DNA of 29,528 bases from Archangiaceae bacterium (GCA_043750125.1 JAYVCD010000176.1:1-29528), one strand, 5' to 3'; counted from the first letter of the stretch, positions 1 to 15,000 are shown. Notes: generated by a model from the letters alone, not told the origin. Translations and numbers: made by a program.

Positions 1-2417
1 CGAAGCGTTGCCAATTCTTCACCGCGGGGATCCCTGCCGCTGCGGCCGAAGTTGCCGATCGGGTCGAGGCGTTCCTGCGGCTCGAGAACCGTCGACGCCT
101 GACGCAGCCGATCGACCTTGTAGCGAAAAAATGACTCGAGCCGGTTGAGCCCGGCGGTCAGCTCTGCGGGCAACGGGGCTTCAGGAGACAGACCTTCGAG
201 CGCTTGATCAATTCGCGCCGAATACGCCCGGCTCAAGAAATCATGAACCGGGTCGGCGGCCGGCAGCGCCTCGAGCGACGCCTTCCGCAACGCCAGGCTG
301 CGGTCGGCCCGGCCCAGCCGAGCAAAGCCCCACGCAAACTCGAAGCCGACGTACGCCCGGGTCAACGCCAGTGGAGCTTCGTTGGGAGAGCGCTTGCGCG
401 ACGTGTCGTCGAAGGCCTTGAGAATCGACTCGAGCTGCTGCGCGACGCGATTCGTTCGCTCGGTGCCCCCTCCGGCATTGGCCTGGCCGGTGACGCGCAA
501 AAGCCGGGGGACGTCGCGCTCGAGCGACAGCCCGCGCGTCAGCCGGCCGAGCAGCCGGTCGCGGGCGCGGGCGAGCAGCAGGGCGTCTCCTCCACTGAGC
601 GCAGAGAGGGCGACCCGCCCCAGCCAGAGCGTGCGCACGTCGAGGCTCTCGTCGAACTTGTCGAGCCAGGCGGTGAGCGCGCTCAGCCGCCGGGTCCACG
701 AGGAGTCTTTCGAGAGGGCCACCTGGGTGAGGTGGGCGACGAAGGCCTGGGCCTGTTCGGCGTCCGGGTTGGTGAGCGCCAGCAGGACCTCGAGCCGGGT
801 GCCGCTGACGTTGGCCCAGCGACGCGAGAGGTTGAGCGCTTCATCGTTGTCGGCTTCCCAGATCGCGTGGCCCCAACACAGCCCCCCTTCGCGATGGCGG
901 TTGAGCCGCGAGTAGAGCTCGGCCAGGCGGACCCACGCCGCGCGCCGCTCGGAAGAATCGGAGCGGGCTTCGAGCGCGAGAAATGCCTGCTCTTCGCGGG
1001 CGAGGTTCTCTTCGAGCTCAGAAGGGGGCAGCGCAGTGGGCAGCTGCAGCTGCACCGCCGAAGGGGTCCGCCCCGCGTCGGCCCGCGCAACTCGGGGGGT
1101 GGCCGCTCGGGGCCGAGTCAGACCGGGCTCGGTGGGCTCGGTGGAACGGACCGCTTTTCGAGGGCGGGTGGAGCTGCCTGCCCCGCCGTCCCCCTCATCC
1201 ACCGGAAGGCGCGGACCCAGCACGTCGTCGATAAAGAACGCCTCGAAGTGGAAGCGAGCGGACCGGATCCACGGCTCGAGCACCTGCTCGCCGCCCTCGA
1301 TGACGTAGTCGACCCACTCGGAGAGCGGGCGAAAGGCGCTCTCTGGAAGCGCGACGCGTGAGAAGCCGCCCCCGCCGGTGGGCTCGAGCCAGCTGAGCAC
1401 GTCGGGGTCATTGGCCAGCCAGCTGCGAAGGCGATCTCGGCGCAACGGAGGTTCGATGGTGAGGCCCAGCGGCGCGTAGAGGTTGGGCAATTCGAACAGG
1501 CGCGCGTACGGATCTCCGGGAAGCGCGCCAGAAGCCGACTCGCGACCCGGCCGGAATCGCAGCGCGAGCGTGTCGTTCGAGACCGCGAACATCAGCCCGT
1601 CGAGCGCGGCCTGCGGAGTCGAGCGCACCAGGGCCTCGATCGCCTGCAGACCCTTGTTGGTGATCCACAACGAAGGGGCATCGTGGCGAGCGGCGCGGGT
1701 GAGCTTGAGGGTCACCGGAAGCCGCGGCACGGTCGGCTCGGTGGGAAGCAGGCCAAGCGCCGGAAGCTGGGTGGGGGTGACGAGCTGGTCTGCGTCGGTC
1801 CACGGGCCATCGGCGACCAATTGCCAATCGCCCACCCCGGGGACGAGCAACATTCCAGCCCGGGGCAGCTCGAGCGTGGGAACCAGCGGGTGAGCAAAGC
1901 CCAGCTCGGTCCACACCGAGTCCTGGTGGGTGGGCGTCGGGACCCAGGCGCGCAGTCCATCGACCCGATCGAGCGCGCGGTTGAGCACGAACCAGGGCGG
2001 CTGATGGACCCGGACCAGCGAGACGATTCCTTCGGCGCCGCGGACGACTCTGAATTCCTGGCGGTCGCAGCCCAGCCGCAGCAGCTCACCGCATAGGGCC
2101 AGCATTCCTTCCGAGGTGGGAAAGGTGAAGAGCACCCGCGCCGGAGTTGCCGTCGGCTCGTCGGTGCGACGCGCGGGAAGCGTGGCGGCCCAGCAGCAGA
2201 CGCTGACCAACCCCGACGAGCTGGCGCGCTCGACGACTCCGGCCTGGCGCAGGGCCAGCTTCTTCGCGGTGGGCACGGGAAGCGAGGGTTGAACTTCGAT
2301 CGACCCGTCTGCGAGTCGGGTGAACTTGACCTCGGCTCGCTGAACCTCAGGGGGCACCAGCCCCGACTTGAGGGCAATCTGCAGAGCGCTGGCGCTGGCG
2401 AAGACGAGGGAATCCAC
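1..2417 (-). CDS. Large (>805 aa) uncharacterised protein, FtsH ternary-system component (fvmX7-like; numbering tentative); 3' end beyond left edge
   Basis: Absent from the ORF track, consistent with no stop inside the window. Hand translation from GTG 2417: MDSLVFASASALQIALKSGLVPPEVQ...LCGELLRLGCDRQEF...PPWFVLNRALD...AFRPLSEWVDYVI, then a low-complexity linker, then FRYKVDRLRQASTVLEPQERLDP. All segments translated are open, GC3-rich and in one frame. Family recognised from memory. Confidence 0.8.
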   Translation of the reverse strand, partial: MDSLVFASASALQIALKSGLVPPEVQRAEVKFTRLADGSIEVQPSLPVPTAKKLALRQAGVVERASSSGLVSVCCWAATLPARRTDEPTATPARVLFTFPTSEGMLALCGELLRLGCDRQEFRVVRGAEGIVSLVRVHQPPWFVLNRALDRVDGLRAWVPTPTHQDSVWTELGFAHPLVPTLELPRAGMLLVPGVGDWQLVADGPWTDADQLVTPTQLPALGLLPTEPTVPRLPVTLKLTRAARHDAPSLWITNKGLQAIEALVRSTPQAALDGLMFAVSNDTLALRFRPGRESASGALPGDPYARLFELPNLYAPLGLTIEPPLRRDRLRSWLANDPDVLSWLEPTGGGGFSRVALPESAFRPLSEWVDYVIEGGEQVLEPWIRSARFHFEAFFIDDVLGPRLPVDEGDGGAGSSTRPRKAVRSTEPTEPGLTRPRAATPRVARADAGRTPSAVQLQLPTALPPSELEENLAREEQAFLALEARSDSSERRAAWVRLAELYSRLNRHREGGLCWGHAIWEADNDEALNLSRRWANVSGTRLEVLLALTNPDAEQAQAFVAHLTQVALSKDSSWTRRLSALTAWLDKFDESLDVRTLWLGRVALSALSGGDALLLARARDRLLGRLTRGLSLERDVPRLLRVTGQANAGGGTERTNRVAQQLESILKAFDDTSRKRSPNEAPLALTRAYVGFEFAWGFARLGRADRSLALRKASLEALPAADPVHDFLSRAYSARIDQALEGLSPEAPLPAELTAGLNRLESFFRYKVDRLRQASTVLEPQERLDPIGNFGRSGRDPRGEELATL

Positions 2418-2480
2418 GGGCTGCAGAAGTAAGCCGAACCGAGCCTCGATGCAGCTACTTACGCAGCGTAGGCTGGCGAG

Positions 2481-2666
2481 ATGAACCGGCTGCCTGCGCC
2501 GAAACTTACCGATTGGCTCGAGCCGATGCTGCCGTCTACCCGGTACCGGGTTCAGCTCGGGGCCCACGCGCTGCTCGAGCATCGCCCGGGACACGGCGCG
2601 CGCCTACCGCTGGCGGTCCCGGAACCGATTGCTGAGGCGATTCGCCGGGTGGCCGAGCAAATTTAG
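2481..2666 (+). CDS. Small hypothetical protein (61 aa), possibly a remnant of an alpha/beta-hydrolase C-terminus
   Basis: ATG start, GC3-rich codons, fills the gap between two minus-strand genes and stops 1 bp from the next gene's stop. Tail PGHGARLPLAVPEPIAEAIRRV loosely resembles the hydrolase C-terminal helix. Confidence 0.4.
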   Translation: MNRLPAPKLTDWLEPMLPSTRYRVQLGAHALLEHRPGHGARLPLAVPEPIAEAIRRVAEQI

Positions 2667-2667
2667 A

Positions 2668-2934
2668 TCAGCGCTTGTTCGCCACCGGCGCAGCGCGGGG
2701 TGCTTCCTTCTGCGGCTCTTCCTGCGGTCCGGTGACGACGCCTTCCCGTTCGATCACCACCTGGCCCATGTCCTCGGCGGTGACGGTGCCGCCGGCGATC
2801 AATGCCGCGACAATCTTCCGATGCGCCTCTTCGTGCTCCATCGGCAGCGCGTCGGGGTCAGACTCGTACTTCACCCAGACGTTCTTCTTCTTCGTCACCG
2901 GGTCGGTCTGAAGCCTCAAGGTCAAGGTGGCCAT
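2668..2934 (-). CDS. Small acidic protein, FtsH ternary-system component (fvmX3-like, tentative)
   Basis: 88 aa ORF MATLTLRLQTDPVTKKKNVWVKYESDPDALPMEHEEAHR, 4 bp downstream of the AAA protease stop, strong coding bias. Confidence 0.8.
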   Translation of the reverse strand: MATLTLRLQTDPVTKKKNVWVKYESDPDALPMEHEEAHRKIVAALIAGGTVTAEDMGQVVIEREGVVTGPQEEPQKEAPRAAPVANKR

Positions 2935-2938
2935 CGCT

Positions 2939-5059
2939 TCAGCCCTCGGTGGGAACGGGGTTCTGGTTCAGCCCCGCGGGAAGAAAGGAGCTCAGTGCTT
3001 CGCGATCGAGGACCTTCTTCTGGACCAGCAGGTCGCGCAGGGTCTCGACCAGCACCCGGTTGTCGCGAAGGATGCGGGCGGCGCGGCCTCGTTGCTCTTC
3101 GAGGATCTTCCGGACTTCGGCTTCCGCGTGCCCCTTCAAGGCCTCGGACGGCTCGAGATCTTCGTTGCTGCGCCGCTCGAGCCGCCGCACTCCGACCGCG
3201 TCACCGCCCATTCCAAACTCTTCCACCAGGGCCCGCGCGATCGCCGTCGCGCGATCGAGATCCGACGAGCTGCCGATCGACAGGTCATTGAGGCACAGCA
3301 CCTCGGCCTCACGTCCTCCGAACAAGGTGCAGATCTGATCGAGCAGCTGCCCCTGGGTCACCACGTACCGATGCGCGGGGTCCGAGTAGCTGACGAAGCC
3401 CAGCGAGCCCGCGAGGTCGCCGCGAATCGAGATGCGATCAATCGGAGGGCTGTGGGTACAGAACAGCGCCGCCACCGCGTGTCCCGCTTCGTGGGTGGCG
3501 ACGACCTTCTCTTCTCGGCCCGTCAACGCGGGACGTTCGACGAACTCATTGAGCGTCTTCTCGATGTCGTCGACGGTGGTCGCATCAAAGCGGTCTTCGC
3601 GCAGTCGCATGCGCGCCAACGAGCGACACAGGGCCTGCAGATGGTCGCCCGAGTAGCGGGTGGTCATGCCCTCGACCAGGTCGCCGGTGCGCTTGACGGT
3701 GTAGTCCATCGCCCGCGGCGAGAAGTTCAGCGACATCTTCTGGTCGTAGATGCCCAGGATCGCGCGCCGGTCTTCCATGTTCGGAAACGGAACGTGGAGG
3801 TGGAACTCGAACCGTCCGGGCCGCAGCAGCGCGGGGTCCAGCGACTCGACGAAGTTGGTAGTGCCGACGACGAACACCAGCTCTTCTTTTCGAAAGCCGT
3901 CCATCTCGGTGAGCAGCTGGTTCACCATCGAGTGCTCGACCCCGCTGCCGACGTGCATCCCCCGCCGCACCGCGAACGAATCGAGCTCGTCGAAGATGAT
4001 GATCGCCGGAGCCGCCTGGCGGGCCTGCACGAACACCCGGCGCAGATTCTCTTCACTTTCCCCGACCCACTTCGACTTCAGCTCGGGCCCGCTGACGACC
4101 GAGACCGCCGCGCCAAGAGAGGTGGCCATCGCCTTGGCGAACAGCGTCTTCCCCGTTCCCGGAGGCCCCCAGAAAATCATCCCCCGGGGAATCAGCCCTT
4201 CGACCCGCTTCACCTGCCCCTCGTCGGCGAGGGCTTCCTTCAGCTTGAGGACGTCGAGAATTTCCTTCTGCAGCCGCTCTTTGACTTTCGGGTAGCCGCC
4301 GATGTCGCGGATGAGATCCACCTCGGGGACCTGCAGCGCACCGACGAGGGTATTCGCGCGCAACTGGCCCAGCGCCGGCCTGGGGTCCGAGGGGTAATCT
4401 TCGCCCTGCAGCGTCGAGAGCATTCGACGCAGCCGCACCGCGTTCACGCCCGAGACGTGCTTGTACAGCGAGTAGGGCTTGAAGATTTTTCCGGCCGAGA
4501 GCTTTCGCGATTCGCGTTGGGTGACCAGCTGGCCCAGCCGTTCGCGCGGAGTGCCCAGCAGCGACTCGCTGCGCGGGAACAGATTTTCAATCACCCGGGG
4601 AATCGGAAAGCTCGGGTCTTTGAAGCCGAGGATCACCAGCTCGGGATTTTCGTACAACAGGGGAATCGCCTCGCGCGCCTCGGACGTGAGCCCGCCCACG
4701 CTGGTGGTGAGCAGGTCCAGGTGCGGCAGCGCGAGGACCCGTTCGGCCACGGCGCCGCGCACCGCTTCGCGCAGCAAGAAGATGATCGCCGCGACGAGGC
4801 TGATTCCCGGTGGCAGCGGGGGCATGTCCGAGATGGGCCGCCCGTCGAGGTAGAGGAAACTCTTTCCTTCCTTCTTCAGCCGATCGCGCACGCAGCGGTA
4901 CAGGTACGGAGTGAGCTCTTTGTCCGCCTCGACCAGCACTGACAGTCCGTTGCGCAGCGAATCGGTGATGCGGGAAATGGCGTCCGGATAAGCGGCCTCG
5001 ACGGCGGCAAAGGCGTTGAGCTCGAGGGGAAGGGCGGCCTCGGCGACCTCGGTGCTCAA
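2939..5059 (-). CDS. Soluble AAA+ ATPase / M41 zinc metallopeptidase (FtsH-like, no TM anchor) with a degenerate N-terminal AAA-like domain
   Basis: Walker A GPPGTGKT, pore loop SKWVGESE, Walker B IIIFDELD, second region of homology ALLRPGRFE, zinc motif HEAGH and GSSSDLDRAT. TTG start overlaps the upstream stop (TTGA). No hydrophobic helices. Confidence 0.93.
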   Translation of the reverse strand: MSTEVAEAALPLELNAFAAVEAAYPDAISRITDSLRNGLSVLVEADKELTPYLYRCVRDRLKKEGKSFLYLDGRPISDMPPLPPGISLVAAIIFLLREAVRGAVAERVLALPHLDLLTTSVGGLTSEAREAIPLLYENPELVILGFKDPSFPIPRVIENLFPRSESLLGTPRERLGQLVTQRESRKLSAGKIFKPYSLYKHVSGVNAVRLRRMLSTLQGEDYPSDPRPALGQLRANTLVGALQVPEVDLIRDIGGYPKVKERLQKEILDVLKLKEALADEGQVKRVEGLIPRGMIFWGPPGTGKTLFAKAMATSLGAAVSVVSGPELKSKWVGESEENLRRVFVQARQAAPAIIIFDELDSFAVRRGMHVGSGVEHSMVNQLLTEMDGFRKEELVFVVGTTNFVESLDPALLRPGRFEFHLHVPFPNMEDRRAILGIYDQKMSLNFSPRAMDYTVKRTGDLVEGMTTRYSGDHLQALCRSLARMRLREDRFDATTVDDIEKTLNEFVERPALTGREEKVVATHEAGHAVAALFCTHSPPIDRISIRGDLAGSLGFVSYSDPAHRYVVTQGQLLDQICTLFGGREAEVLCLNDLSIGSSSDLDRATAIARALVEEFGMGGDAVGVRRLERRSNEDLEPSEALKGHAEAEVRKILEEQRGRAARILRDNRVLVETLRDLLVQKKVLDREALSSFLPAGLNQNPVPTEG

Positions 5060-5622
5060 ATCCGTACCTTGATCGTCAGGTTGCCGCTGCCGTCTTCATG
5101 AATCTCTTCGACGGTTCCCAGCTCTCCGGCCCGCTTCTTCAGCGCGCTGGCCGTGACCTTGTTGACCACGGCATCGAGCTCTTCTTTCAGATCTTTCAAC
5201 TTGGCCTCGAGCTGCGCGGTGACCTTGCGGCGAAGCGCTTCTTCCTCGGCCTGGGCCTCGCGGTCCAGCTGCTCTTTTGCAGCCGCGCGCAGCTGCTCTT
5301 CGAGCTGGGGATCAACGGCGTTGGTGTTGAGGATCACCCGGGTGCGTTGGGTCTCGAGGTCCAGATCGACGTGGCCTTCGACGGTGATCGCCACTTCGCC
5401 CGATTCGACGTTCACCTTCACGGTGATCCCGTCTGGGTCTTTGCGAACGGCGTGGTCCCCCTCGCGCAGGAAACCCTTCTGTTCGAGCTCGGCCGAAAGC
5501 AAAGCCCCCATCGCGCCTTTCCCCAGAATGGGAAGCAGCTCGAGGTTGCTGCATACCCCGTCGTCGACTTGAACGTGGCGGCTGAGGCTCTCGGCGATGG
5601 TGATTCGGTAGGCGCGACTCAT
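5056..5622 (-). CDS. Coiled-coil uncharacterised protein, FtsH ternary-system component (fvmX5-like, tentative)
   Basis: 188 aa from ATG 5622 (MSRAYRITIAESL...LELLPIL), charged helical C-half, ends GNLTIKVRI. Translationally coupled to the AAA gene. Confidence 0.8.
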   Translation of the reverse strand: MSRAYRITIAESLSRHVQVDDGVCSNLELLPILGKGAMGALLSAELEQKGFLREGDHAVRKDPDGITVKVNVESGEVAITVEGHVDLDLETQRTRVILNTNAVDPQLEEQLRAAAKEQLDREAQAEEEALRRKVTAQLEAKLKDLKEELDAVVNKVTASALKKRAGELGTVEEIHEDGSGNLTIKVRI

Positions 5623-5655
5623 GGCGGCGGACCCCACCACAGTCCGGCTGAACCC

Positions 5656-7203
5656 TCAATCGCCAGACTTGCGGGGGCCGACGCCGAAGGTGTTGTCGCT
5701 GTGAAAACCCTTTGGATGGTTGAGGAATTCCTCGGCGCGCCGGGGCCCGAGCAGCCTTTCCAGCTCGTCAATCATTCGCTCGTCCTCGACGAGAAAGAGC
5801 CGGAAAGCCCGCATCACCGCAACCCCGTCTTCCGGATTCCCCCTCGGCCTGAGGCCCGCCCGTTCGTCGGCCAGCGTCCGCACCGCCTCGGCAAAGTCAT
5901 CTTTCAGCGCCTTGGCCCGAAGCTCGTTGAAGATCGTCTCGGTGCCCAGCGTGCTGGCCAGATTGGGGTCGCCTCCGATTTCTTTGTAGATCTTCAGCAG
6001 CCCAGTGCGAGTGCGCGCGCTCGAACCCTCGAACAGCTCTCTGACTTTCGCCACCTCTTCGGGGGTCAACCCGAGCTCGTCTCTCACCTTGTCATCGACC
6101 TTGATCGGCTCGCCCGACAGCTGGGGCCCACGCAACCGCAGCTCGCCCTTCTGCGCGGACGCGAGCAGCTCGGCGGGCTCAAACCGGTAGTAGTTGCGCT
6201 TCGGGTGGCTGCCTTCCGTTTCGGCCGCCAGCTTCTTCTTCAGCGCTTCGCGCTGTCCGAGGAGCGCTTCTTTCTCGTCTCTCAACGCTTCGACCATCGC
6301 GATCAGCTGCGGTTGGGTCATCGCCTGCAACGCAGAAGGAGCGGGAATCCGGGTCGGCTCGCCGGTGAGCGCGAGCGGGCGCGACGCGCTCGGCCGGGCG
6401 TCGCCTCCTTTCCACTGCTCGCCTGCGCTCACCACCACCGGCGCCCCCACCCCCTGCCGAACGCTGGCGTGGCCTTCGATGACGAACAGAGTCAGCGCTC
6501 CTCCCATCGCGGCGGCGACGGCGACAGACGACAGCTTGATCCATTGGGTCTTCATCAATTCTCCCGAGCGGGTGGTGTTCAGCACGTCGGTGACACGAGC
6601 CACCCCTTCGGCAGGTTCCATCGAGAGAACCGAAACTCCGTTCACTTCCACCGTCGCCCCCGAAGCGGTGAGCGTCAGTCCTTCCGCCCGAACCACCGCG
6701 GTGCCTCGAGTCAGCGCCAGCCCCTTGTCATGGGTCAGCTGCGCGCCCCCCGGCATCAACACCGTCGCGCCCTGCCCGTCCAGCTGGGCCGACGCCGCGC
6801 GCGCCACCTCGAGGAGCCAACGAGCGCCCCCAAGGGTTGCGGGCGCGGTGAGGGTTTTTCCGTCAACCTTCACCTCTCCGGTCGGTACGACCCCCCACTG
6901 CTCGGCAGGCGCGCCGAGGAAAGTCCAACCGAGGAAGCAGAGCCCCACTGCCGCGGCGGCCAGGCCGACCCACAGCTCGAGGCCCGGGGTGCGCCTCTTC
7001 GGTTCCGGCCGGCGGACTCTGGCGATCAACGCTTCGAGCTTCGCCTCGCTCAGGCCCACCGGCAGCGAACCCACCGCGGCGTCGAGCACCTGCAACTGCC
7101 TCAACCGCTCGGCAAACCCCGCCTGGGCTTCGAGCGCGCGCGCGGCCTCGGGGGAAAGCTCTCCGGCCCGGTAGCGCGACAGCTGTTCGAACTCTTCACT
7201 CAT
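5656..7203 (-). CDS. Membrane-anchored anti-sigma factor with FecR-like beta region, coiled coil and uncharacterised C-terminal domain
   Basis: N-terminal LSRYRAGELSPEAARALE anti-sigma-type helix, TM segment LWVGLAAAAVGLCFLGWTFLG, FecR-like strands (LALTRGTAVV, TVEVNG, LFVIEGHASV, VVVSAGEQW). ATGA overlap with the ECF sigma gene. Confidence 0.8.
   Translation of the reverse strand: MSEEFEQLSRYRAGELSPEAARALEAQAGFAERLRQLQVLDAAVGSLPVGLSEAKLEALIARVRRPEPKRRTPGLELWVGLAAAAVGLCFLGWTFLGAPAEQWGVVPTGEVKVDGKTLTAPATLGGARWLLEVARAASAQLDGQGATVLMPGGAQLTHDKGLALTRGTAVVRAEGLTLTASGATVEVNGVSVLSMEPAEGVARVTDVLNTTRSGELMKTQWIKLSSVAVAAAMGGALTLFVIEGHASVRQGVGAPVVVSAGEQWKGGDARPSASRPLALTGEPTRIPAPSALQAMTQPQLIAMVEALRDEKEALLGQREALKKKLAAETEGSHPKRNYYRFEPAELLASAQKGELRLRGPQLSGEPIKVDDKVRDELGLTPEEVAKVRELFEGSSARTRTGLLKIYKEIGGDPNLASTLGTETIFNELRAKALKDDFAEAVRTLADERAGLRPRGNPEDGVAVMRAFRLFLVEDERMIDELERLLGPRRAEEFLNHPKGFHSDNTFGVGPRKSGD
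6553..6565 (-). promoter_or_regulatory. Candidate internal ribosome-binding site and in-frame ATG (Met217) within the anti-sigma gene
   Basis: Minus strand reads GGGAG-AATTG-ATG AAG ACC: a Shine-Dalgarno 5 nt before an in-frame ATG, followed by a signal-peptide-like sequence. Confidence 0.5.
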
Positions 7204-7775
7204 GACTCACCTGCCCGCACGAAAGTTTTGGCTTGAGACAACAGCGGCTGAAGGCTGACCGCCAAAGCGGCCCGCGCTCGGTGAAGACGGGACTTCAGGG
7301 TTCCCATCGGCACGCCTTCCACCTGGGCGACGGCTTCGAGCGACTGCCCGTGAAGCTGGGTCAAGACGAAGACCGTGCGCTGCGCCTGGGGCAACTGGGC
7401 GAGCGCCGCCTCGAGCGCCGCGTCCAGCTGCTGCTGATGGACGGCGACGAAAGCGCTCGGTCGGTCATCGGCCACCTCGAGCCCGGTTTCCATCGGCGCG
7501 AGCTTTAAGTGACGACGCTTCTTTTCGTCGAGCAACCACCGATGCGCGACGGTGAAGACCCAGGTGGTGAGAATCGCCGGACCGTCGAACTCGAACCGGT
7601 TCACCACCGTGAGCAGCTTCTCGAGCAGCTGTTGAGTCAGGTCGTCCGCGTCGTTCTCGTTGCCGGCGCGCCGAACGAACGAATGCAGCACGGGGGCGTA
7701 CCGCCGCAAGAAGACGTCTTGGGCCCCTCGGTCGCCCCGCCGCAGCTGTTCGACGGTGAATCTGTCCAACTCCAT
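7200..7775 (-). CDS. ECF-subfamily RNA polymerase sigma factor (191 aa)
   Basis: Region 2 DADDLTQQLL...TTWVFTVAHRWLLDEKKRR; region 4 LAQLPQAQRTVFVL...SLEAVAQVEGVPMGTLKSRLHRARAAL. Start trimmed to ATG 7775 (MELDRF) because the longer ORF overlaps the upstream gene. Confidence 0.93.
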   Translation of the reverse strand: MELDRFTVEQLRRGDRGAQDVFLRRYAPVLHSFVRRAGNENDADDLTQQLLEKLLTVVNRFEFDGPAILTTWVFTVAHRWLLDEKKRRHLKLAPMETGLEVADDRPSAFVAVHQQQLDAALEAALAQLPQAQRTVFVLTQLHGQSLEAVAQVEGVPMGTLKSRLHRARAALAVSLQPLLSQAKTFVRAGES

Positions 7776-7788
7776 GGGCTCGAGGGTC

Positions 7789-7814
7789 ACACGAACTGGG
7801 CCGAAAAAGGTTCC
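7789..7814 (-). promoter_or_regulatory. Putative autoregulatory ECF promoter (-35 GGAAC, 16-nt spacer, -10 CGTGT)
   Basis: Minus strand GGAAC-CTTTTTCGGCCCAGTT-CGTGT lies in the 40-bp gap just upstream of the sigma ATG and matches the common ECF AAC/CGT architecture. Confidence 0.6.
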
Positions 7815-7815
7815 G

Positions 7816-8319
7816 TCAGCTCTTCGATTGCAGCCCGACTGCGATCGTCCCTTCTGGCTGGGGGCCAAACTTCATCGCTCCCGCGGGGAGGAAATAGAGG
7901 ATGTCCATCAGGCCCCCTTCCACCGTCGGCACGTGCCACGAGCCGGGGGCGTACACCGTCCACCCTTCGCTGCGCCCATCGAACCGCGGGCTGCCCGAGA
8001 CTGCGAAGCAAAGGTCGAACTCTCCGCCGGGGTGGGTGTGCGCCATGCCCGCACCGGACATGTGCACCGCGTCGATCGACAGGCCCCCTTCGGTCGATTT
8101 CAAGACCCGGGAATAGCGGACGCCTTCGTTCTCGCGCTCGCACAGCCAGCGTGCTTCGACGCCTTCGCGCATCATCGCCTTGACCCGCTGGATCTGCGGC
8201 GAATCGATGGGAAGCTTCGCTGCCAACGCAACGCCCGCAGCGGGGTCGGACACGTTCGTCTCGCGCAGCGCCGCCAACACCGGCCCCAGCGCTTCAAGAA
8301 ATTCTTCCCGGTTTGCCAT
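7816..8319 (-). CDS. DUF4863 / 4-hydroxylaminobenzoate lyase (PnbB)-like cupin protein (167 aa)
   Basis: C-terminal part of the 389 aa track ORF, from MANREEFLEAL. Contains WLCEREN.GVRYSRV, SIDAVHM, HTHPGGEFDL, FDG...GWTVYAPGSWHVPTVEGG, ILYFLP.G. Confidence 0.8.
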   Translation of the reverse strand: MANREEFLEALGPVLAALRETNVSDPAAGVALAAKLPIDSPQIQRVKAMMREGVEARWLCERENEGVRYSRVLKSTEGGLSIDAVHMSGAGMAHTHPGGEFDLCFAVSGSPRFDGRSEGWTVYAPGSWHVPTVEGGLMDILYFLPAGAMKFGPQPEGTIAVGLQSKS

Positions 8320-8402
8320 CGGACGAAGCCACCACAGGTCGGAAGTGACTGCCATCATTCCTTCTACCCCCCGCGGCGGCCTGTTCTCGCGCGCTTCCCC
8401 TC

Positions 8403-8418
8403 TGGCACCTGCGCTGCA
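8403..8418 (+). promoter_or_regulatory. Putative sigma54 (-24/-12) promoter of the FIST gene
   Basis: TGGCAC-CTGCG-CTGCA with exact GG-N10-GC spacing (GG 8404-8405, GC 8416-8417). Predicted +1 is about 8429, 2 nt before ATG 8431. Confidence 0.5.
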
Positions 8419-8430
8419 CCCATACCCGGG

Positions 8431-9198
8431 ATGGACGTTAAACAGGGCCGCTGGACCCTCGAGTCGGGCTGGACCTGGGCCACGAAAGGCCCCGACGCGA
8501 CTGCGAGGCTGGTGCTGGCATTTGGAGGGCACGCCGCGCTGCTGGGCCCCGGGCCTCTCGACGCGCTGAGTGTGAAGTTCCCAAACGCGCACGTGGTGGC
8601 CTGTTCGACCGAAGGAGAGGTCGAAGGCACCCGTGTCTTCGAAGACGCGATTGTCGCGACTGCAATCCGGTTCGAGCACACCGAGGTCCACGTGGCCGAG
8701 GCGCGGATCATTCCAGGACGCAGCAACCACGAAGCGGGAGTGCAGCTCGCGCAGTTGATGGCGCGTCCCGACCTGTCCCACCTGTTCGTCCTCTCGAGCG
8801 CGGTGGAGCTCGAGCCTGGCACGCTCTCGAAGTGCCTGACCGCAGCCCTGCCCCGGCACGTGGCGTTGACCGGAGGCAGCGCGCGCGCGGTCTGCTTTCA
8901 GGGCCGGCCGATGGCCAACGCGATTGTGGCGGTGGGATTCTTCGGTCACCGCCTGCACATTGGCTACGGCGCCCTCGATGGACACGACCCCTTCGGTTCC
9001 GAGAGCCGCAACGGGTTCGGCGGAGGGTCGCCCGAGCTTGCAATTCTGACCAGCAGCGCCAGCGCTCCACGCGCCCCGACCCAGAGGCTGGAAGAAGAGG
9101 TGCGCAGCGTGCGGGCAATGCTCGGCCCCGATGTGGCGCTGACCGGCTTCTGCGGCCAGGCACAGCGCACGACCGTGACCACTTTGAGAGAAGAGTAG
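8431..9198 (+). CDS. FIST (NosP-family) sensory-domain protein, internally shortened; possibly degenerate
   Basis: 255 aa from MDVKQGRW. FIST_N motifs LVLAFGG, FPNAHVVACSTEGEV, AIVATAIRFEHT, HLFVLS, ALTGGSA, GYGALDGHDPFG. Only the tail of FIST_C is present. Confidence 0.75.
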   Translation: MDVKQGRWTLESGWTWATKGPDATARLVLAFGGHAALLGPGPLDALSVKFPNAHVVACSTEGEVEGTRVFEDAIVATAIRFEHTEVHVAEARIIPGRSNHEAGVQLAQLMARPDLSHLFVLSSAVELEPGTLSKCLTAALPRHVALTGGSARAVCFQGRPMANAIVAVGFFGHRLHIGYGALDGHDPFGSESRNGFGGGSPELAILTSSASAPRAPTQRLEEEVRSVRAMLGPDVALTGFCGQAQRTTVTTLREE

Positions 9199-9207
9199 CC
9201 GCTCGGT

Positions 9208-10236
9208 TCAGATTGGATTTTCGAGCTCGGACAACAGGCGACCGGCCTGGAGGAAGCCGGGGGCCCCCAGGACTTCCCACGCCTTCACCAGCGCTTGCGA
9301 TTTTTCGTAGTCCTCTTCGAAGAAGCGCACCACGCGATGCTCTTGATCCCACCGGCGCAGCTGGCCCAGGACCCTCAACAAGGCGCCCGCCTGTCTGCGC
9401 GCGTCCGACCGATCGCGCAGCGAAGTCGTCGGCGAAAGGCTCTTCACCCAGTCGTCGCCGTTTTTCTTTTCGTCGATCACCTGCGCCCCGGCCTCGACCA
9501 GGAACCCGAGCAGCTCACGGCGCTTCGCGCTCTCGGCGGCCTTCAACAGCGCACTCAACACCGCGTCTTGCGCTTGCCCCACCCGAGAGAGCTCGGCCGG
9601 ATCTTCGACCTGCGCCTTGCTCGATTCCATCTGGGCCCATGCGCGGGCGAACGTCGGCTGCCAGGCTTCGAGAAAAAACGTCAGCGGGGCGCCGGGTGCC
9701 AGGTCCATCACCGGAAGCTCTTCGCCCAGCGCCTCGGCGCGGGCCAGCGCCGCCGGAGCCAACACCCAGCACAACGCCGAGCTGCGCACCCGCGGCTGTG
9801 TCGCAAACCCCCGCTCACATTCGGTGTCCGTCACCATCATCAAGGCCAGGGCCAGCAGCGCTTCGTCTGCCCACGACTGCGCCGGGGCGACCGGCAGGGG
9901 TTTGAGCCCGCCTTCGCACAGCGGGGTCCGCAACAGCCACTGCAGCAACCCCCACGACGCCGCCTGAAAGTCGATCGGAGGCAGCGCAATCCGTTCCCAC
10001 AACCGCTGGTTGCGCTCCTGTCTCCAGCCGCCACCGCGCAACACGGCCAGTCCCACTCCGCGCCCCAGGGTTTCCTGCAGCAACCGCATCGCCGTCGGGC
10101 CCAGCGCCGTGGGCGAGGGGCGTTGGAAGCTGAGCAGCCGTTCGACTTCGGGGTACGACGAGATTCCGACCACCGCCCGCGCGATGCGCAGCAGCTCGGA
10201 TTCCTGGGTCGTCACCCGCGCACTTTGCAAGGGCAC
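9208..10236 (-). CDS. Helical uncharacterised protein, FtsH ternary-system component (fvmX6-like, tentative)
   Basis: 342 aa, GTG start 1 bp after the radical SAM stop. Motifs ESELLRIARAVVG, LQETLGRG...LRGGGW, RRELLGFLV, RVVRFFEEDYEKSQ. Family recalled from memory. Confidence 0.72.
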   Translation of the reverse strand: MPLQSARVTTQESELLRIARAVVGISSYPEVERLLSFQRPSPTALGPTAMRLLQETLGRGVGLAVLRGGGWRQERNQRLWERIALPPIDFQAASWGLLQWLLRTPLCEGGLKPLPVAPAQSWADEALLALALMMVTDTECERGFATQPRVRSSALCWVLAPAALARAEALGEELPVMDLAPGAPLTFFLEAWQPTFARAWAQMESSKAQVEDPAELSRVGQAQDAVLSALLKAAESAKRRELLGFLVEAGAQVIDEKKNGDDWVKSLSPTTSLRDRSDARRQAGALLRVLGQLRRWDQEHRVVRFFEEDYEKSQALVKAWEVLGAPGFLQAGRLLSELENPI

Positions 10237-10237
10237 T

Positions 10238-10813
10238 TCAAGTCCCCGAGCGCACGCGGTCGGCGAGCGTTGGCCAGCCGTTGATGGTCAGCCCTTCGCG
10301 GGTCAGCCGAAGCTCGACCGTATTCGCGGCGTGGAACCGCGCGTCGTCGGGGGCGTAGCGATCGGTGAGGAAATGAAGCACCTGATTCGTCGAGCCCAAC
10401 CACCGACGCTTCGTCTCGGGCAGCGACTGCTCGTAGCGGCCGTCGACCAGCAGGTCGATCGCGCCGAGCAGTCGGGCACTGCCGGGCCTGAGGCGAAGCT
10501 GCTCGAGGGTGTAGCCGCTGTAGAGCATCACCGAGAGGCCGCCCGCCCGAACGCGCTCGCAGAAGTCGGCGACGGCCTCTGCCTGCTCGCCGGGCTCGCC
10601 GCCGAGAATCGAGATTCCCTCGAGGCCCCCGGTCGCCAGCGCCTCTCGCGCGAGCTCGACCGAATCGACGACCCGGCCTTTGTCCGCAGCGAACATCTCG
10701 GGGTTGCAGCAGCCCGGGCATCGAATGCTGCAGCCCTGGACCCAGACCGCAAAGCGTCGACCCGGGCCTTCAGCCTCAGTCGGGGAAACGATCTGCGCGA
10801 TGCGAAGGTCCAC
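10238..10813 (-). CDS. NrdG-like small radical SAM (glycyl-radical activating enzyme-like) protein
   Basis: 191 aa; EGPGRRFAVWVQGCSIRCPGCCNP (CxxxCxxC), GISILGGEP, YSGYT, IDLLVDGRY, WLGSTNQ. Confidence 0.9.
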   Translation of the reverse strand: MDLRIAQIVSPTEAEGPGRRFAVWVQGCSIRCPGCCNPEMFAADKGRVVDSVELAREALATGGLEGISILGGEPGEQAEAVADFCERVRAGGLSVMLYSGYTLEQLRLRPGSARLLGAIDLLVDGRYEQSLPETKRRWLGSTNQVLHFLTDRYAPDDARFHAANTVELRLTREGLTINGWPTLADRVRSGT

Positions 10814-10853
10814 GGGCAGAAAGCTAAACAGCTTCCCGGGTGGCGATCATCCT

Positions 10854-11939
10854 TCAGATGGGCAGGACGCCGGCGGCGAGCTCCATCATCTGCAGCCGGC
10901 GTTGGGTCACCGGGCTGGTCCCGTCGATCAACGCGTCGGTTTCGATCAACACCCGCTCGAGCGGGAAGCGCTGCACCGACGCATCGGACGTGGGAATTCC
11001 GCCCTTCACCGGAGGCTGCCACCCGACCATCTCGTCCGTCGCACCCGCCAGCAGCGCCTCGACCGCAGCCAGCCCGAAGCGACCGGCGACCATTCGGTCC
11101 ATGTACGAAGGGTTTCCTCCCCGCACCACGTGGCCGAGCACGGTCGCGCGAATCTCGACACCCGCAATCTCTTTCGCGAGCACTTCCTCGACCAGCCGCA
11201 CCAACCGCGTCGTTGGAACCGAGACGCCCTCGGCTTTGATCACCAAAACCCGGCGCTTGCCCCGCGCGTAGCCATTGCGGACCACGTTGGCCACATCGTG
11301 GACCAACTGTTCCTCGCTCTTTCCCTGCTCGCGAATCAACGCGGCGTCGGCGCCGGCGGCGATGCTGCTGGCCATCGCCAGGTACCCACAGCTGCGCCCC
11401 ATCACCTCGACCACGAAGGCCCGGCGATGGGCGCGGGCGGTGTCTGAAATCTTGTCGCAGGCCTCGACGATGGTGTTGAGCGCGGTGTCGACGCCGAGCG
11501 CGGTCGAGGTGCAGCCGATGTCGTTGTCGATGCTGCCGGGAATGCCCATCACCTTGACCCCGAACTCGGTGGCCAGGCAGTGCGCGCCGGTGAGACTGCC
11601 GTTGCCTCCAATCACCACCAGCCCGTCGACGTGGTGTTTGGTCAGCTGCCCGACGGCGGCTTTGCGACCCGCGGGCTCGCGAAACCGCAACGACCGCGCG
11701 GTGCCGAGCAGCGTGCCGCCCATGCCTCCGGCGAAGTCGAGCTCGAGGTCCGCTCCGATGGTGCCGTTGTCGACCGCGCGGGTCAGCTCGCGAAACCGGC
11801 CGTCGATCAACCCTTCGTAGCCGTCCAGCGACCCCAGAACATGCGCCCCCCGCGCCGCAGCGAGCTTCACGACCGCGCGAATCGCCGCGTTCATTCCGGG
11901 GGAATCGCCGCCGGACGTCAGCACCACAAGCCGTTTCAT
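10854..11939 (-). CDS. pfkA: ATP-dependent 6-phosphofructokinase
   Basis: LTSGGDSPGMNAAIRAVV, GGTLLGTAR, IGGNGS, GSIDND, VEVMGR, LGHVVRGG; AAGGA ribosome-binding site upstream. Confidence 0.93.
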   Translation of the reverse strand: MKRLVVLTSGGDSPGMNAAIRAVVKLAAARGAHVLGSLDGYEGLIDGRFRELTRAVDNGTIGADLELDFAGGMGGTLLGTARSLRFREPAGRKAAVGQLTKHHVDGLVVIGGNGSLTGAHCLATEFGVKVMGIPGSIDNDIGCTSTALGVDTALNTIVEACDKISDTARAHRRAFVVEVMGRSCGYLAMASSIAAGADAALIREQGKSEEQLVHDVANVVRNGYARGKRRVLVIKAEGVSVPTTRLVRLVEEVLAKEIAGVEIRATVLGHVVRGGNPSYMDRMVAGRFGLAAVEALLAGATDEMVGWQPPVKGGIPTSDASVQRFPLERVLIETDALIDGTSPVTQRRLQMMELAAGVLPI

Positions 11940-12271
11940 GAGGTCCTTTGCTAAGAGCGACTCTCACTTTCGTTGAACCTTCTTCAGAGCGAAACCATGA
12001 AATTCCTTCTGCTGCCACCGTCTACCCCCGCTTCACCCAGGACGGCACCGAGCTCGACCGTCCGCTCGATTGGATCCTCGTCAAGTGCGAGCAAGGTCAG
12101 GCGCGGTTCAACTTCTCGATGTGAGGTTTCGCGAAGCTCGCTCCAAACCTCCACCAGACTGAAAATGCGATTGGCTGAGGCGGTGCCAAATTTCACCCGC
12201 CAACAGGAGCCGCCAAGCGGAACAGAGCCTTTCGGTCACTTCGGCCCCGATTCGGCAATGAGCGCCGATTC

Positions 12272-12291
12272 TAATCCAGCTTCCTGGATTA
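12272..12291. promoter_or_regulatory. Perfect 8-4-8 palindrome, candidate transcription-factor operator
   Basis: TAATCCAG-CTTC-CTGGATTA in the divergent pfkA / TonB-receptor intergenic region, ending 99 bp before the receptor start. Confidence 0.5.
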
Positions 12292-12390
12292 CCCTCCGCC
12301 ATCAATGGCGCCTTTCCAAATGCGCGGTGCGTCCGCGATCGGATTCATCGCCAAGCGCATGACTCAACAGTGCGTTAGATCACCGTCGCT

Positions 12391-15000
12391 TTGCGCCCGG
12401 CCTTCCTCCTCATTTTCCTCCTCTGCACCGCTGCATTCGCGCAGCCAGACGCTGGCGCGCCGACGGGGACGCTGACCAAAGCGCCCACGCTGCTCAAGCA
12501 GGTCGAAGCGATCTACCCGCCCTTGGCACTCGACGCCGGGTCGGGAGGAACGGTGGTGATGGAAATCGACATCGGTGCCGACGGCAAGGTGGTCGCCGCG
12601 GGGGTGATTCAGAGTGCCGGCGCCGAGTTTGATCAAGCCGCACTCGAAGCGGTCCGACAGTTCGAGTTCACGCCCGCCGAAGTGGACGGAACGCCAACGG
12701 CCGTTCGCATTCAGTACAGCTACGAGTTTTTCTTTCGCCCCGAAGTGGTCACCTCTGCTCTCGGCGCCGACGGGGGAGCTGCGGCCGAGGTGGTGAACTT
12801 CGAAGGCACGCTGGTCGAACGTGGCACGCGCGCGCCCCTGCCCGGTGCGACGATCGCGATCGGAGAACTGAACACCGTCTCGGACGATCAAGGCCGCTTC
12901 AGCTTCGTCGCCGTGCCGCTGGGGGCGCAGAAGGTGGTGGTGGTCGCTCCGGATTACGCACGCTACGAAGGGGTCGAACAGATCAAGCCGGGCGAGAAAA
13001 CGGTCGCCACCTACTTCGTGCGGCGCAAGGTGTACGGCGCGTTCGAGACGGTGGTACGGGCGCCTCGTGAGCGCAAAGAGATCGCGCAGATCACGCTCAA
13101 GCAAGAAGAGATGCGGCTGATCCCCGGCACCAACGGCGACGCCTTCAAGGTGGTGCAAAATCTGCCCGGGGTCGCGCGGTCTCCCTTCGGAATCGGGCTG
13201 GTCATCGTGCGCGGCAGCAACCCTTACGACACCCGCACCTATGTCGACGATGCGCAGGTCCCGCTGTTGTTCCACTTCGGGGGGCTCTTCTCGACCTTCA
13301 ACAGCAACCTGCTGCAGGACATCAGCTTCCAGCCGGGAAATTTCGGCGTCGAATACGGCCGCAACATCGGAGGGCTGATCAAGGCGACGGTGCGCACTCC
13401 TTCGCAGCACGGAATCCACGGCTACGCAGACATCAACGTCACCGACGCGTCCGCGCTGATCGAAGCGCCCGTTTCAGAAAACTGGAGCGTCGCCGCTTCC
13501 TTCCGTCGCAGCTGGATCGACGTGCTGCTCCCGTGGGGGCTGAAGACCTTCTATCCAAAGTCGAAGGACCTGCTGAGCTTCACCGTCGCTCCGAACTATT
13601 TCGACTGGCAGCTGCGGGCCGAGTGGCGGACGAAGAATGGCAAGCGCCGGTTCTTCGTGACCCTGTTCGGAAGCTCGGACGCGCTGAAGCTGGTGCTGCC
13701 CAACCCGGCGATCGACCCCGAAGGGCGCGGCGAGCTCAGCACCACCATCGGCTACAACCGGCTGTTGGTCGGCTTCGATGCCACCTTGAGCCCCTCGGTC
13801 TCGTTCAGCTCGCGCACCTTCGCGGGCTCGGATTTCTACGCATTCACCGTGGGGTCCGACCTGTTCGCGAAAGGGCAGCAGTGGCCGGTCGCTTCGCGCA
13901 ACGCGTTCACGATCGAGCTCGAGTCGCTGAACCTCACGGTGGACACCGGGGTGGACCTCAATCTGTTGACGTTCCACCTCAACTTCCAGCGCCCGCCCGC
14001 CTTCAAGCTCAACCAGATTCCGGACCCTTTTCTGTCCCGGCAGCTGCTCGCGGAAGACACGACCACGACCACCTTTCAGCCTGCGGTCTTCGCCGAGGCG
14101 ACCTGGCGGCCGTTGCCCTCATTGAAGATTGTCGGGGGCGTTCGCGCCGACTACGACCTGCAGCTGAACCGGGGCTGGGTCGACCCTCGCATCGTGGCGC
14201 TGTGGACCCCGATCGAGTCGACCACGATCAAAGCGGGGGCCGGACTGTACCACCAACCTCCGGACTATCGAGGGGGGCAGCTGTCGAAGAAATTTGGAAA
14301 CCCCCACCTGCTCCCGGAAGGCGCGAGCCACTACACCGTCGGCGTCGAGCACCATTTCACCGACGCGATCAGCCTCGACGTGCAGCTGTATTACAAGGAC
14401 CTCTTTCACCAGGCCCGCGCGACCCTCGGAGCGGACTCGGGAATCACCAATGTCGACACGGTGGACCTGCACTACGTCAGCACCGGGGTAGGCAAGGGCT
14501 ATGGCGTCGAGCTGTTGCTGCGGCACGCGCTGACGAAGAACTTCTTCGGGTGGATCGCCTATTCACTCTCGCGCACTGAACGGGACTACGCGCAGGGCCA
14601 GCAATACGGGGCCCACCCGTTCGATCAACCGCACAACCTGGTGATCGTCGCCAGCTACAAGCTGCCGTACGACTTCATCGTCGGCGCGAAGCTTCGCTAC
14701 ACGACCGGCCCGCTCAACACCCCGACCATCGGCTCGATCTACGACACCAACGGGAACTACTACTACCCGCTGTTCGGCCCCCAGTGGAGCCGACGGTTGC
14801 CCGACTTCTTCCAGCTCGACGTCCGCATTGATCGCCGGTTCGTGTTCGAGCGGTGGATGCTCGCGCTGTACGTCGACGTCCAAAACGTCACCAACCGCCA
14901 GAACGTCGAAGGCGTGACCAACAACTACGACTACACCAAAGAGCAGTTCATCTACGGGCTGCCGATCATCCCCGTCCTCGGAGTGAGGGCCGAATGGTGA
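12391..15000 (+). CDS. TonB-dependent receptor with N-terminal TonB C-terminal domain and carboxypeptidase-regulatory-like domain
   Basis: Signal peptide (..CTAAFA/Q), TonB_C (YPPLA..GTVVMEIDIGADGKV..FDQAALEAVRQFEFTPA), Ig-like beta-sandwich (GTLVERGTRAPLPGATI), plug (IPGTNGDAFKVVQNLPGVAR, GNFGVEYGRNIGG), barrel ending LGVRAEW. Confidence 0.92.
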   Translation: MRPAFLLIFLLCTAAFAQPDAGAPTGTLTKAPTLLKQVEAIYPPLALDAGSGGTVVMEIDIGADGKVVAAGVIQSAGAEFDQAALEAVRQFEFTPAEVDGTPTAVRIQYSYEFFFRPEVVTSALGADGGAAAEVVNFEGTLVERGTRAPLPGATIAIGELNTVSDDQGRFSFVAVPLGAQKVVVVAPDYARYEGVEQIKPGEKTVATYFVRRKVYGAFETVVRAPRERKEIAQITLKQEEMRLIPGTNGDAFKVVQNLPGVARSPFGIGLVIVRGSNPYDTRTYVDDAQVPLLFHFGGLFSTFNSNLLQDISFQPGNFGVEYGRNIGGLIKATVRTPSQHGIHGYADINVTDASALIEAPVSENWSVAASFRRSWIDVLLPWGLKTFYPKSKDLLSFTVAPNYFDWQLRAEWRTKNGKRRFFVTLFGSSDALKLVLPNPAIDPEGRGELSTTIGYNRLLVGFDATLSPSVSFSSRTFAGSDFYAFTVGSDLFAKGQQWPVASRNAFTIELESLNLTVDTGVDLNLLTFHLNFQRPPAFKLNQIPDPFLSRQLLAEDTTTTTFQPAVFAEATWRPLPSLKIVGGVRADYDLQLNRGWVDPRIVALWTPIESTTIKAGAGLYHQPPDYRGGQLSKKFGNPHLLPEGASHYTVGVEHHFTDAISLDVQLYYKDLFHQARATLGADSGITNVDTVDLHYVSTGVGKGYGVELLLRHALTKNFFGWIAYSLSRTERDYAQGQQYGAHPFDQPHNLVIVASYKLPYDFIVGAKLRYTTGPLNTPTIGSIYDTNGNYYYPLFGPQWSRRLPDFFQLDVRIDRRFVFERWMLALYVDVQNVTNRQNVEGVTNNYDYTKEQFIYGLPIIPVLGVRAEW

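Follow-up and report, generated by a model that had tools for sequence, protein, structure and literature searches.

The first 10,813 nucleotides of a 29,528-nucleotide stretch of DNA from an Archangiaceae bacterium (the window) and contig C205 from that bacterium's genome very probably jointly encode one complete FtsH ternary system of the simple type, a member of the MoxR-vWA class. The locus is a further example of this computationally predicted class and adds no new system type. What it does add is a completed parts list, a three-module structure, an apparently orphan radical S-adenosylmethionine (SAM) enzyme, a HExxH motif in the small protein called the X3-analog, and a genus-specific unit built around an extracytoplasmic function (ECF) sigma factor.

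FtsH ternary systems are subsystem 3 of the MoxR-vWA systems of Kaur, Burroughs, Iyer & Aravind (eLife 2020; PMC7159879). As described there, the simpler type combines a vWA protein carrying an N-terminal helical domain with a stand-alone radical SAM effector, and some simple-type systems also include the effector NEFF1. The same source describes the FtsH component with a second, inactive, N-terminal AAA+ copy, singles out as a variant the GXXXTAKS P-loop often found in the MoxR ATPases, raises the idea that a small stand-alone protein is the radical SAM substrate, and reports the systems from Myxococcota and Planctomycetota.

The genome (G000) is 89% complete in 460 contigs, and the window spans one of these, C176, from end to end; its G+C content is 62–70%. 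Against the Pfam series for the system (fvmX1–7, ivWA and ivWA-helical_N), used at curated gathering cut-offs, five of the six minus-strand genes match FtsH ternary families with E-values of 1e-26 to 1e-55, and the sixth encodes a NrdG/PflA-like radical SAM enzyme (rSAM). Bit scores are 172.6 for fvmX5, 187.4 for fvmX6, 167.3 for fvmX7 and 92.5 for the fvmX3-analog (cut-offs 24–27), and the protease scores 135 for AAA and 116 for Peptidase_M41. These E-values, together with a gene order that recurs in 80 loci, are far beyond chance. The parts, with their place in the three modules described below, are as follows.

10238–10813, minus strand: rSAM, 191 aa; Fer4_12, E 1.1e-31; first gene of module 1
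9208–10236, minus strand: fvmX6, 342 aa; PF20004, E 5e-55; module 1
5056–5622, minus strand: fvmX5, 188 aa; PF20003, E 1.1e-50; first gene of module 2
2939–5059, minus strand: AAA+/M41 zinc protease (FtsH-like), 706 aa; AAA, E 2.8e-39, and Peptidase_M41, E 1.9e-33; module 2
2668–2934, minus strand: fvmX3-analog, 88 aa; PF20002, E 1.8e-26; isoelectric point 5.66; last gene of module 2
3–2417, minus strand: fvmX7, first 805 aa, GTG start at 2417, truncated by the end of the contig; PF20005, E 7.3e-49; first gene of module 3
C205, 1776–2798: bpMoxR; PF20030, 207 bits, also AAA_5 and AAA_lid_8; P-loop GPPGTAKS
C205, ~2801–4294: ivWA protein; PF19997, 107.4 bits (cut-off 35)

The original prediction, made from the window alone, had named six co-oriented minus-strand genes, and gene calling and Pfam place all six where it put them. 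The tight coupling it described is also present: the X6 gene starts 1 nt past the rSAM stop, X5 and FtsH overlap by 4 nt, and FtsH and the X3-analog are separated by 4 nt. Its assignment to the FtsH ternary systems is borne out, since five fvmX-series or M41 families score above their curated cut-offs in the composition that Kaur et al. give for the simpler type, and homologues of all six genes co-occur in both Myxococcota and Planctomycetota. The protein it had called a 342-aa helical protein is fvmX6, and the >805-aa protein at the left end is fvmX7, distinct from the vWA component.

All eight simple-type parts are present because C205 supplies what the window lacks: the last 278 residues of fvmX7, then bpMoxR, then a protein with the helical N-terminal domain and ivWA. 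A vWA component had been predicted to lie left of the window, and it is found there in this sense, with C205 continuing fvmX7 into bpMoxR and ivWA. Positions 1–834 of C205 (which is also locus L065) align to residues 797–1074 of the X7 orthologue of genome G004, and the window ends near residue 795. X7 here would be ~1,080 aa, and full-length relatives measure 1074–1133 aa; in those relatives bpMoxR and then the ivWA-helical_N plus ivWA protein come after X7. The ivWA-helical_N match on C205 reaches 25.2 bits, slightly below its cut-off of 27.

The locus resembles the published simple type in all family models, in the GXXXTAKS-type P-loop of its MoxR, in a divergent vWA whose N-terminal domain is helical, in its FtsH-type AAA+ protein, stand-alone radical SAM enzyme and system-specific helical and small proteins, and in its occurrence in Myxococcota and Planctomycetota. 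It differs in carrying lineage-specific insertions and an ECF sigma/anti-sigma unit that abuts the protease module. The M41 domain is intact here, with HEAGH; the string 'M41' is absent from the main text of PMC7159879. There is also a likeness to RavA-ViaA, in that the C205 MoxR matches RavA (PRK13531, E 3.4e-42, under the cut-off) and precedes a vWA protein, but this MoxR is of the bpMoxR subfamily and stands within an eight-gene system that includes a protease and a radical SAM enzyme. Between the X7 stop and the MoxR start, C205 holds, in a 0.94-kb stretch, a signal-peptide/lipobox-like open reading frame (ORF; 838–1775) with long GTGGG-type Gly/Thr repeats. It is conserved in the same-genus genomes G001 and G003, and relatives from other genera have at most 79 nt between X7 and MoxR; the repeats may explain why contigs break here in several assemblies.

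To compare gene order, species-representative genomes were scanned with the X5 alignment, giving 136 relatives. The 80 best loci were retained, 54 of them carrying a Myxococcota label and 26 a Planctomycetota label. Parts were located by tblastn, gaps were estimated from the match bounds, and a gap above 500 bp was called wide. The order and strand of the parts are the same across the 80 loci of the two phyla. In 5/5 genomes checked, X5, X6 and X7 share a contig and a strand, and four larger genomes keep all parts on one strand and in one order, though gaps reach 10–23 kb. Wide gaps are distributed over the junctions as follows.

rSAM–X6: Planctomycetota 0/22, Myxococcota 1/27
X6–X5: Planctomycetota 0/24, Myxococcota 17/28
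X5–FtsH: Planctomycetota 0/16, Myxococcota 1/52
FtsH–X3-analog: Planctomycetota 0/13, Myxococcota 2/51
X3-analog–X7: Planctomycetota 0/13, Myxococcota 12/19
X7–MoxR: Planctomycetota 0/2, Myxococcota 0/10

Because rSAM–X6, X5–FtsH–X3-analog and X7–MoxR almost never separate, the eight genes form three cohesive modules: rSAM–X6, X5–FtsH–X3-analog and X7–MoxR–vWA. At the two inter-module junctions, Archangium-like Myxococcota have wide gaps, and Planctomycetota, Myxococcus and Cystobacter have tight ones; a single myxobacterial lineage tolerates insertions there. The same division appears in a maximum-likelihood tree of 63 full-length FtsH-like proteins, for which every locus giving one near-full-length match was taken and all others were left out. 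The clade of the window holds 43 rows, the window included, with an ultrafast bootstrap of 100 and a Shimodaira–Hasegawa-like approximate likelihood ratio of 99; 39 rows are split, one is compact and three are undecidable. All 14 planctomycete rows (14/14) are compact, as are 5/6 in a clade of Haliangium, Cystobacter, Pyxidicoccus and Myxococcus. The original prediction had called the cluster split by inserted genes. This is true of the window, and the junction counts and the FtsH tree make it a clade-wide feature and not an accident of one genome.

Further genes were seen at two junctions in other genomes. Locus L019 (G032:C16:30900-50899) has a VIT-domain/TPR gene (~8800–11649, plus strand) between X5 and the FtsH-like gene, and is the sole X5–FtsH junction above 500 bp among the 52 scored in myxobacteria. 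Locus L039 (G016:C50:26000-40000) has a STAND-type NTPase gene (AAA_16/NB-ARC; 11013–13349, plus strand) just upstream of fvmX7, inside the 23-kb X3-analog–X7 gap of G016.

The rSAM protein carries the CX3CX2C motif, here CSIRCPGC, which is kept in 40/40 homologues; GGEP and RRWxGSxNQxxH are invariant. Its best NCBIfam match is NrdG (TIGR02491, E 3.3e-29), at 101.8 bits against a cut-off of 126.1; it scores under the PflA cut-off as well, and its profile matches the PFL-activase structure 3c8f at E 1.5e-12. Judged by these motifs and profiles, rSAM belongs to the glycyl-radical-enzyme activase (NrdG/PflA) lineage. It shares with those activases the cysteine motif, the GGEP SAM-binding motif and small size, but differs from them in the invariant RRWxGSxNQxxH, in its pairing with X6 and in the lack of a glycyl-radical enzyme in 5/5 genomes. 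NrdD (PF13597) was found in 0/5 genomes searched, among them the 89%-complete G000 and the single-contig G008 and G012, while control genomes matched. The Gly_radical domain (PF01228) was likewise found in 0/5, with 3/14 controls matching (E. coli, B. thetaiotaomicron and L. lactis). rSAM thus appears to be an orphan, with no conventional glycyl-radical substrate in the searched genomes, and its substrate must be something else.

rSAM adjoins X6 in 26/27 myxobacterial and 22/22 planctomycete loci. The X6 model is all-helical, with 19 helices, a predicted local distance difference test score (pLDDT) of 94.2 and a predicted template modeling score of 0.92. No convincing PDB relative of the fold was found; the best Foldseek match has E 0.038 and the best VIA match Z 7.3, which is noise level for helical proteins. 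A complex prediction for rSAM with X6, run without controls, scored 0.00 in two runs and speaks neither for nor against the pairing.

In module 2, the conserved start MSRAYRI of X5, present in 8/8 aligned homologues, fixes its length at 188 aa; in the ESM Atlas X5 matched its own family only. The soluble-looking protease has GPPGTGKT, IIFDELD and HEAGH all intact, and 63/63 full-length FtsH-like homologues keep Walker A, Walker B and HExxH. It has in common with canonical FtsH (E. coli, TIGR01241) the order of AAA+ and M41 zinc protease domains, Walker A and B, a pore-loop-like KWVG and HEAGH. Canonical FtsH has a two-helix membrane anchor; the ternary protease instead has a conserved, system-specific N-terminal region of ~280 aa (78% mean column identity). 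It reaches 270.4 bits on the FtsH equivalog TIGR01241, against a cut-off of 600, in a match limited to residues 252–688, and by this measure is no FtsH orthologue. A Kyte-Doolittle scan gave one marginal window, residues 82–105 (maximum 1.78), inside a strongly conserved region. The N-terminal region has no Pfam match at E<=1, and no P-loop was found in residues 1–286.

The ternary protease was also considered as the developmental FtsH-D of M. xanthus, and this was rejected. In M. xanthus a second FtsH presumably lies ~26 genes from MXAN_4333. The product of MXAN_4333, FtsH-D, is said to degrade PopD (PMC4320627). Four complete Myxococcus-like genomes each hold three M41 genes, two of them canonical and ~32 kb apart, with the ternary gene ~2 Mb from this pair.

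The X3-analog is modeled, with low confidence (pLDDT 59.7), as a β-hairpin, a helix and a strand followed by a disordered tail. Across 64 sequences from both phyla its invariant columns are D28, L30, P31, E33, H34, E35, H38 and R63. The HExxH formed by E33-H34-E35-x-x-H38 is present in 64/64 and lies on a single predicted helix. The tail, residues 63–88, forms a linker rich in Pro, Glu and Gln that varies between homologues and has a semi-conserved end, with Lys at position −2 in 54/64 and Gly as the final residue in 42/64; the window copy ends in NKR. A profile search against the PDB gave nothing below E 0.047, and the MamM/ZnT C-terminal-domain rows of the VIA search (Z 4.6) are within noise. 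A ubiquitin-like β-grasp fold was considered and found no support, with a best VIA Z of 4.7 for this low-confidence model and no ubiquitin-like protein among 50 rows. Seven longer forms, each occurring once on a single contig, in which the X3-analog appears joined to X7 or M41 neighbors, were set aside as probable run-on gene calls.

An FtsH-less pair was seen in G008 (locus L017, C1:7846500-7866499; 7674–13045), where an X5-like protein (PF20003, 63 bits) accompanies an X3-analog-like protein (PF20002, 31.7 bits) of 108 aa that has a His-rich tail and does not keep HExxH. The pair adjoins two HxsC-like radical SAM genes, and a B12-type radical SAM gene is nearby. This suggests that X5/X3-analog pairs may also work with other radical SAM enzymes. 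The features of the X3-analog and of this second pair support the idea, raised by Kaur et al., of a small stand-alone protein as the rSAM target, though as a lead and no more than that.

In the mechanism we propose, MoxR, vWA and X7 would form a chaperone-like unit for sensing or assembly, and this unit would license the protease module. rSAM together with X6 would modify some protein or peptide belonging to the system, the foremost candidate being the X3-analog and its disordered tail. The expected outcome is either regulated proteolysis or a modified peptide. In the genus of the window, the protease module is probably co-transcribed with the ECF sigma operon and so would be controlled by the ECF sigma factor.

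Genes between and beside the modules of the window are the following.

8431–9198, plus strand: FIST_N-only protein, 255 aa; PF08495, E 4.8e-21; inserted
7816–8358, minus strand: PnbB/DUF4863 protein, 180 aa; PF16155, E 4.7e-29; inserted
7200–7775, minus strand: ECF-type sigma factor, 191 aa; Sigma70_r2, Sigma70_r4_2 and Sigma70_ECF; inserted
5656–7203, minus strand: anti-sigma-like membrane protein, 515 aa, its putative role taken from position and coupling; inserted
2481–2666, plus strand: 61-aa ORF in the 250-nt X3-analog–X7 spacer
10854–11939, minus strand: ATP-dependent 6-phosphofructokinase (PFK), E 3.2e-92; flank, outside the system

The FIST, DUF4863 and ECF/anti-sigma-like genes named in the original prediction as interrupting the cluster are all real, and the 61-aa ORF lies where listed. 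One correction concerns FIST, a plus-strand gene convergent with X6, with 9 nt between the stops. The sigma factor scores 73.1 bits on TIGR02937 (cut-off 42.9). The 515-aa protein matched no Pfam or NCBIfam family; it has hydrophobic windows within residues 73–244, and these, its position and the 4-nt overlap with the sigma gene would fit a putative anti-sigma factor. DNA 5641–9207 was found at 69–75% identity in 3/4 same-genus genomes; here and below, labels G001–G004 stand for genomes of the same genus as the window's own. No direct or inverted repeats flank this segment, and the window has no tRNA gene and no Rfam family. A scan of 2300–11100 gave no promoter-like site and 9 terminator-like sites where 7.0 ± 2.4 were expected, no better than chance. 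We read the arrangement of PnbB, ECF sigma, anti-sigma and X5 as a probable operon capture, by which the protease module would come under ECF control in the genus of the window.

As regards distribution, fvmX5 is present in 12/61 relatives, the window's genome included, with 11/36 in its own family and 0/24 in other families of the order. A phylum-wide sample of 401 genomes, one per species, gave 91/401. Presence is all-or-none by genus: g58 has the system in 32/32 genomes, g5 in 16/17, g11 in 11/12 and g1 in 3/3, and it is missing from g12 (0/21), g15 (0/12), g30 (0/10) and g14 (0/9). Outside the family of the window, 10/229 sampled genomes carry it.

Several results weigh against the reading of the locus as one complete and functional FtsH ternary system. 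Contigs C176 and C205 have no bases in common, and their adjacency therefore rests on orthologue numbering. The literature library searched gave no experimental work on FtsH ternary systems and just the 2020 comparative-genomics paper. PADLOC, run on ten proteins, has no model for the system and returned generic AAA matches (IetA, TRIP13) for one of them. The inactive N-terminal AAA+ copy described for the FtsH component was not reproduced: in an hhalign comparison of the N-terminal 280 aa with the AAA domain the probability was 0.2%, and the region has no PDB sequence match at E<=10, both alignments being shallow (effective number of sequences, Neff, 1.8). The near-invariant R-x-G-G-W of X6, whose GGW is conserved in 38/44 sequences, resembles the glycyl-radical site motif RVxG[FWY]; X6 as a glycyl-radical protein found no support, GGW capping helix 47–70 in the pLDDT-94 model without the expected loop. 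Gap sizes were taken from tblastn bounds, and a measured gap underlies 23 of the 39 split labels (the window not counted); the other 16 come only from a partner missing in 2.5 kb or more of visible flanking sequence. Lastly, different genera carry different genes in the X6–X5 gap.

These differing contents are the ground for arguing that most inserted genes are passengers, and four alternatives to our reading can be weighed from here. The PnbB–ECF sigma–anti-sigma block, with or without FIST, might be such a passenger, the protease module having its own promoter, and we hold this to be nearly an even call. The gap contains DOT1-like, spermine-synthase-like and WD40 genes in G016, peptidase S15, histidine kinase and other genes in G032, and two unknown plus-strand ORFs in G014. 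The inserted proteins of the window match 2/80 loci at E<=1e-10 (L068 and L069), through the anti-sigma protein only. Within the genus, G003 shows no anti-sigma gene within the 371 bp that can be seen ahead of X5, and FIST, present in G000 and G004, is missing from the junction of G001, where the order is X6, PnbB, ECF, anti-sigma. On the other side, three of the inserted genes, all but FIST, run in the same direction as the system and are closely spaced (40 nt from PnbB to ECF, the 4-nt overlap, and 33 nt from anti-sigma to X5), and the 33-nt spacer has no terminator-like site, in a scan that was at chance level overall. The arrangement is kept at 61–88% protein identity in G001, G002, G004 and L068; PnbB copies are 76–88% identical in G001, G002 and G004, and the anti-sigma-like gene ends ~35 nt before X5 in G002, G004 and L068. 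The X6–X5 gap of G012 also holds an ECF/zf-HC2 anti-sigma pair, unrelated to that of the window. A more radical alternative takes the locus for a decaying remnant whose operon was broken by insertions and whose parts no longer cooperate. Up to four interruptions can be counted (3.6 kb between X6 and X5, 250 nt between the X3-analog and X7, the 0.94-kb repeat-rich ORF between X7 and MoxR, and FIST convergent with X6), but all eight genes are intact open frames with their catalytic motifs, and the parts are retained in order in the 5/5 genomes checked across gaps of up to 23 kb. The split state is moreover old and common to the 43-row clade, unlike what is expected of genes released from selection, and decay is very unlikely. 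Still less credible is that rSAM is a housekeeping anaerobic ribonucleotide reductase activase, NrdG, standing beside PFK and unrelated to the system. NrdG is its top NCBIfam match and PFK lies 40 nt upstream, but the score falls short of the NrdG cut-off, no NrdD accompanies it in the genomes searched, it keeps to X6 in both phyla, and planctomycete loci show no PFK match.

If the locus is one working FtsH ternary system, its role remains to be weighed. We keep the published conflict (anti-invader) reading as the leading one, on the contextual argument published for it. The alternative is that it is a vertically inherited, endogenous machine for regulated proteolysis or proteostasis in Myxococcaceae and Gemmataceae, serving for example development or stress, and not directed at invaders. 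A resident machine would better fit presence that is fixed in whole genera (counted with one genome per species), a single-copy locus, a neighborhood of PFK and a TonB-type receptor conserved across genera, and an FtsH tree that groups by taxon. PADLOC moreover returned nothing beyond generic AAA, and the genes between modules are regulators and metabolic genes, not defense genes. Against it, most families of the phylum are without the system, with few carriers outside the family of the window, and the 26 planctomycete loci place it in a second phylum too, so that transfer and loss must happen. Kaur et al. group FtsH ternary systems by architecture with the MoxR-vWA conflict systems and find them enriched in multicellular bacteria (63/79; Table 1, PMC7159879). 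X6 and X7 also diverge fast relative to the enzymes, with median identities to planctomycete copies of 28% and 31% against 54% for FtsH, which would suit target-facing parts. The patchy occurrence among families, the two phyla and this divergence fit the conflict reading, and we consider the resident-machine alternative the less likely of the two. A more elaborate proposal is speculative and improbable as a whole: a vertically inherited three-module machine that makes and releases a modified protein tag or peptide, in which the X3-analog would be a small metal-binding carrier through the HExxH on its helix, its disordered, Lys-ending tail modified by rSAM and X6 and then handled by the M41 protease under MoxR–vWA–X7, and in which the ECF pair of this genus would have captured the protease module, with an envelope signal and not an invader as the trigger.

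The three units kept together in evolution are likely sub-complexes or transcription units. Genus-wide fixation is unusual for a mobile defense island and speaks for keeping a non-immune role in view. The compact form occurs in Myxococcus and Cystobacter species that can be cultivated, which makes direct testing feasible; loci L111, L115, L116 and L118 are from isolates of Myxococcus, Cystobacter and Pyxidicoccus. In addition, the comparison gives experimental handles on a class known from one comparative-genomics paper.

Around the system, PFK is a conserved upstream neighbor in the Archangium-like clade. It lies upstream of rSAM in 16/54 myxobacterial loci, and is also found in G008, G012, G014, G016 and G032. 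Beyond it in the window, a receptor-like gene with TonB_C, CarboxypepD_reg and Plug domains (12391–16334, plus strand) may continue into the ORF at 14853–16334, which might point to a frameshift or a mis-call; a TonB-type receptor gene also stands beside PFK in G012 (L037) and G032 (L040). Farther on, a radical SAM/SPASM peptide-maturase-like gene (16340–17641, minus strand; TIGR04103, 437 bits, under the 725 cut-off) heads a block reaching to 29357 that contains glycosyltransferase, methyltransferase, GDP-mannose dehydratase, epimerase, DegT aminotransferase and FdtA/hexapeptide genes. In L037 (G012:C1:5222000-5232000), an IS481-family transposase gene (4259–5230, minus strand) lies between the radical SAM gene and PFK and is the sole mobile-element gene seen at any junction.

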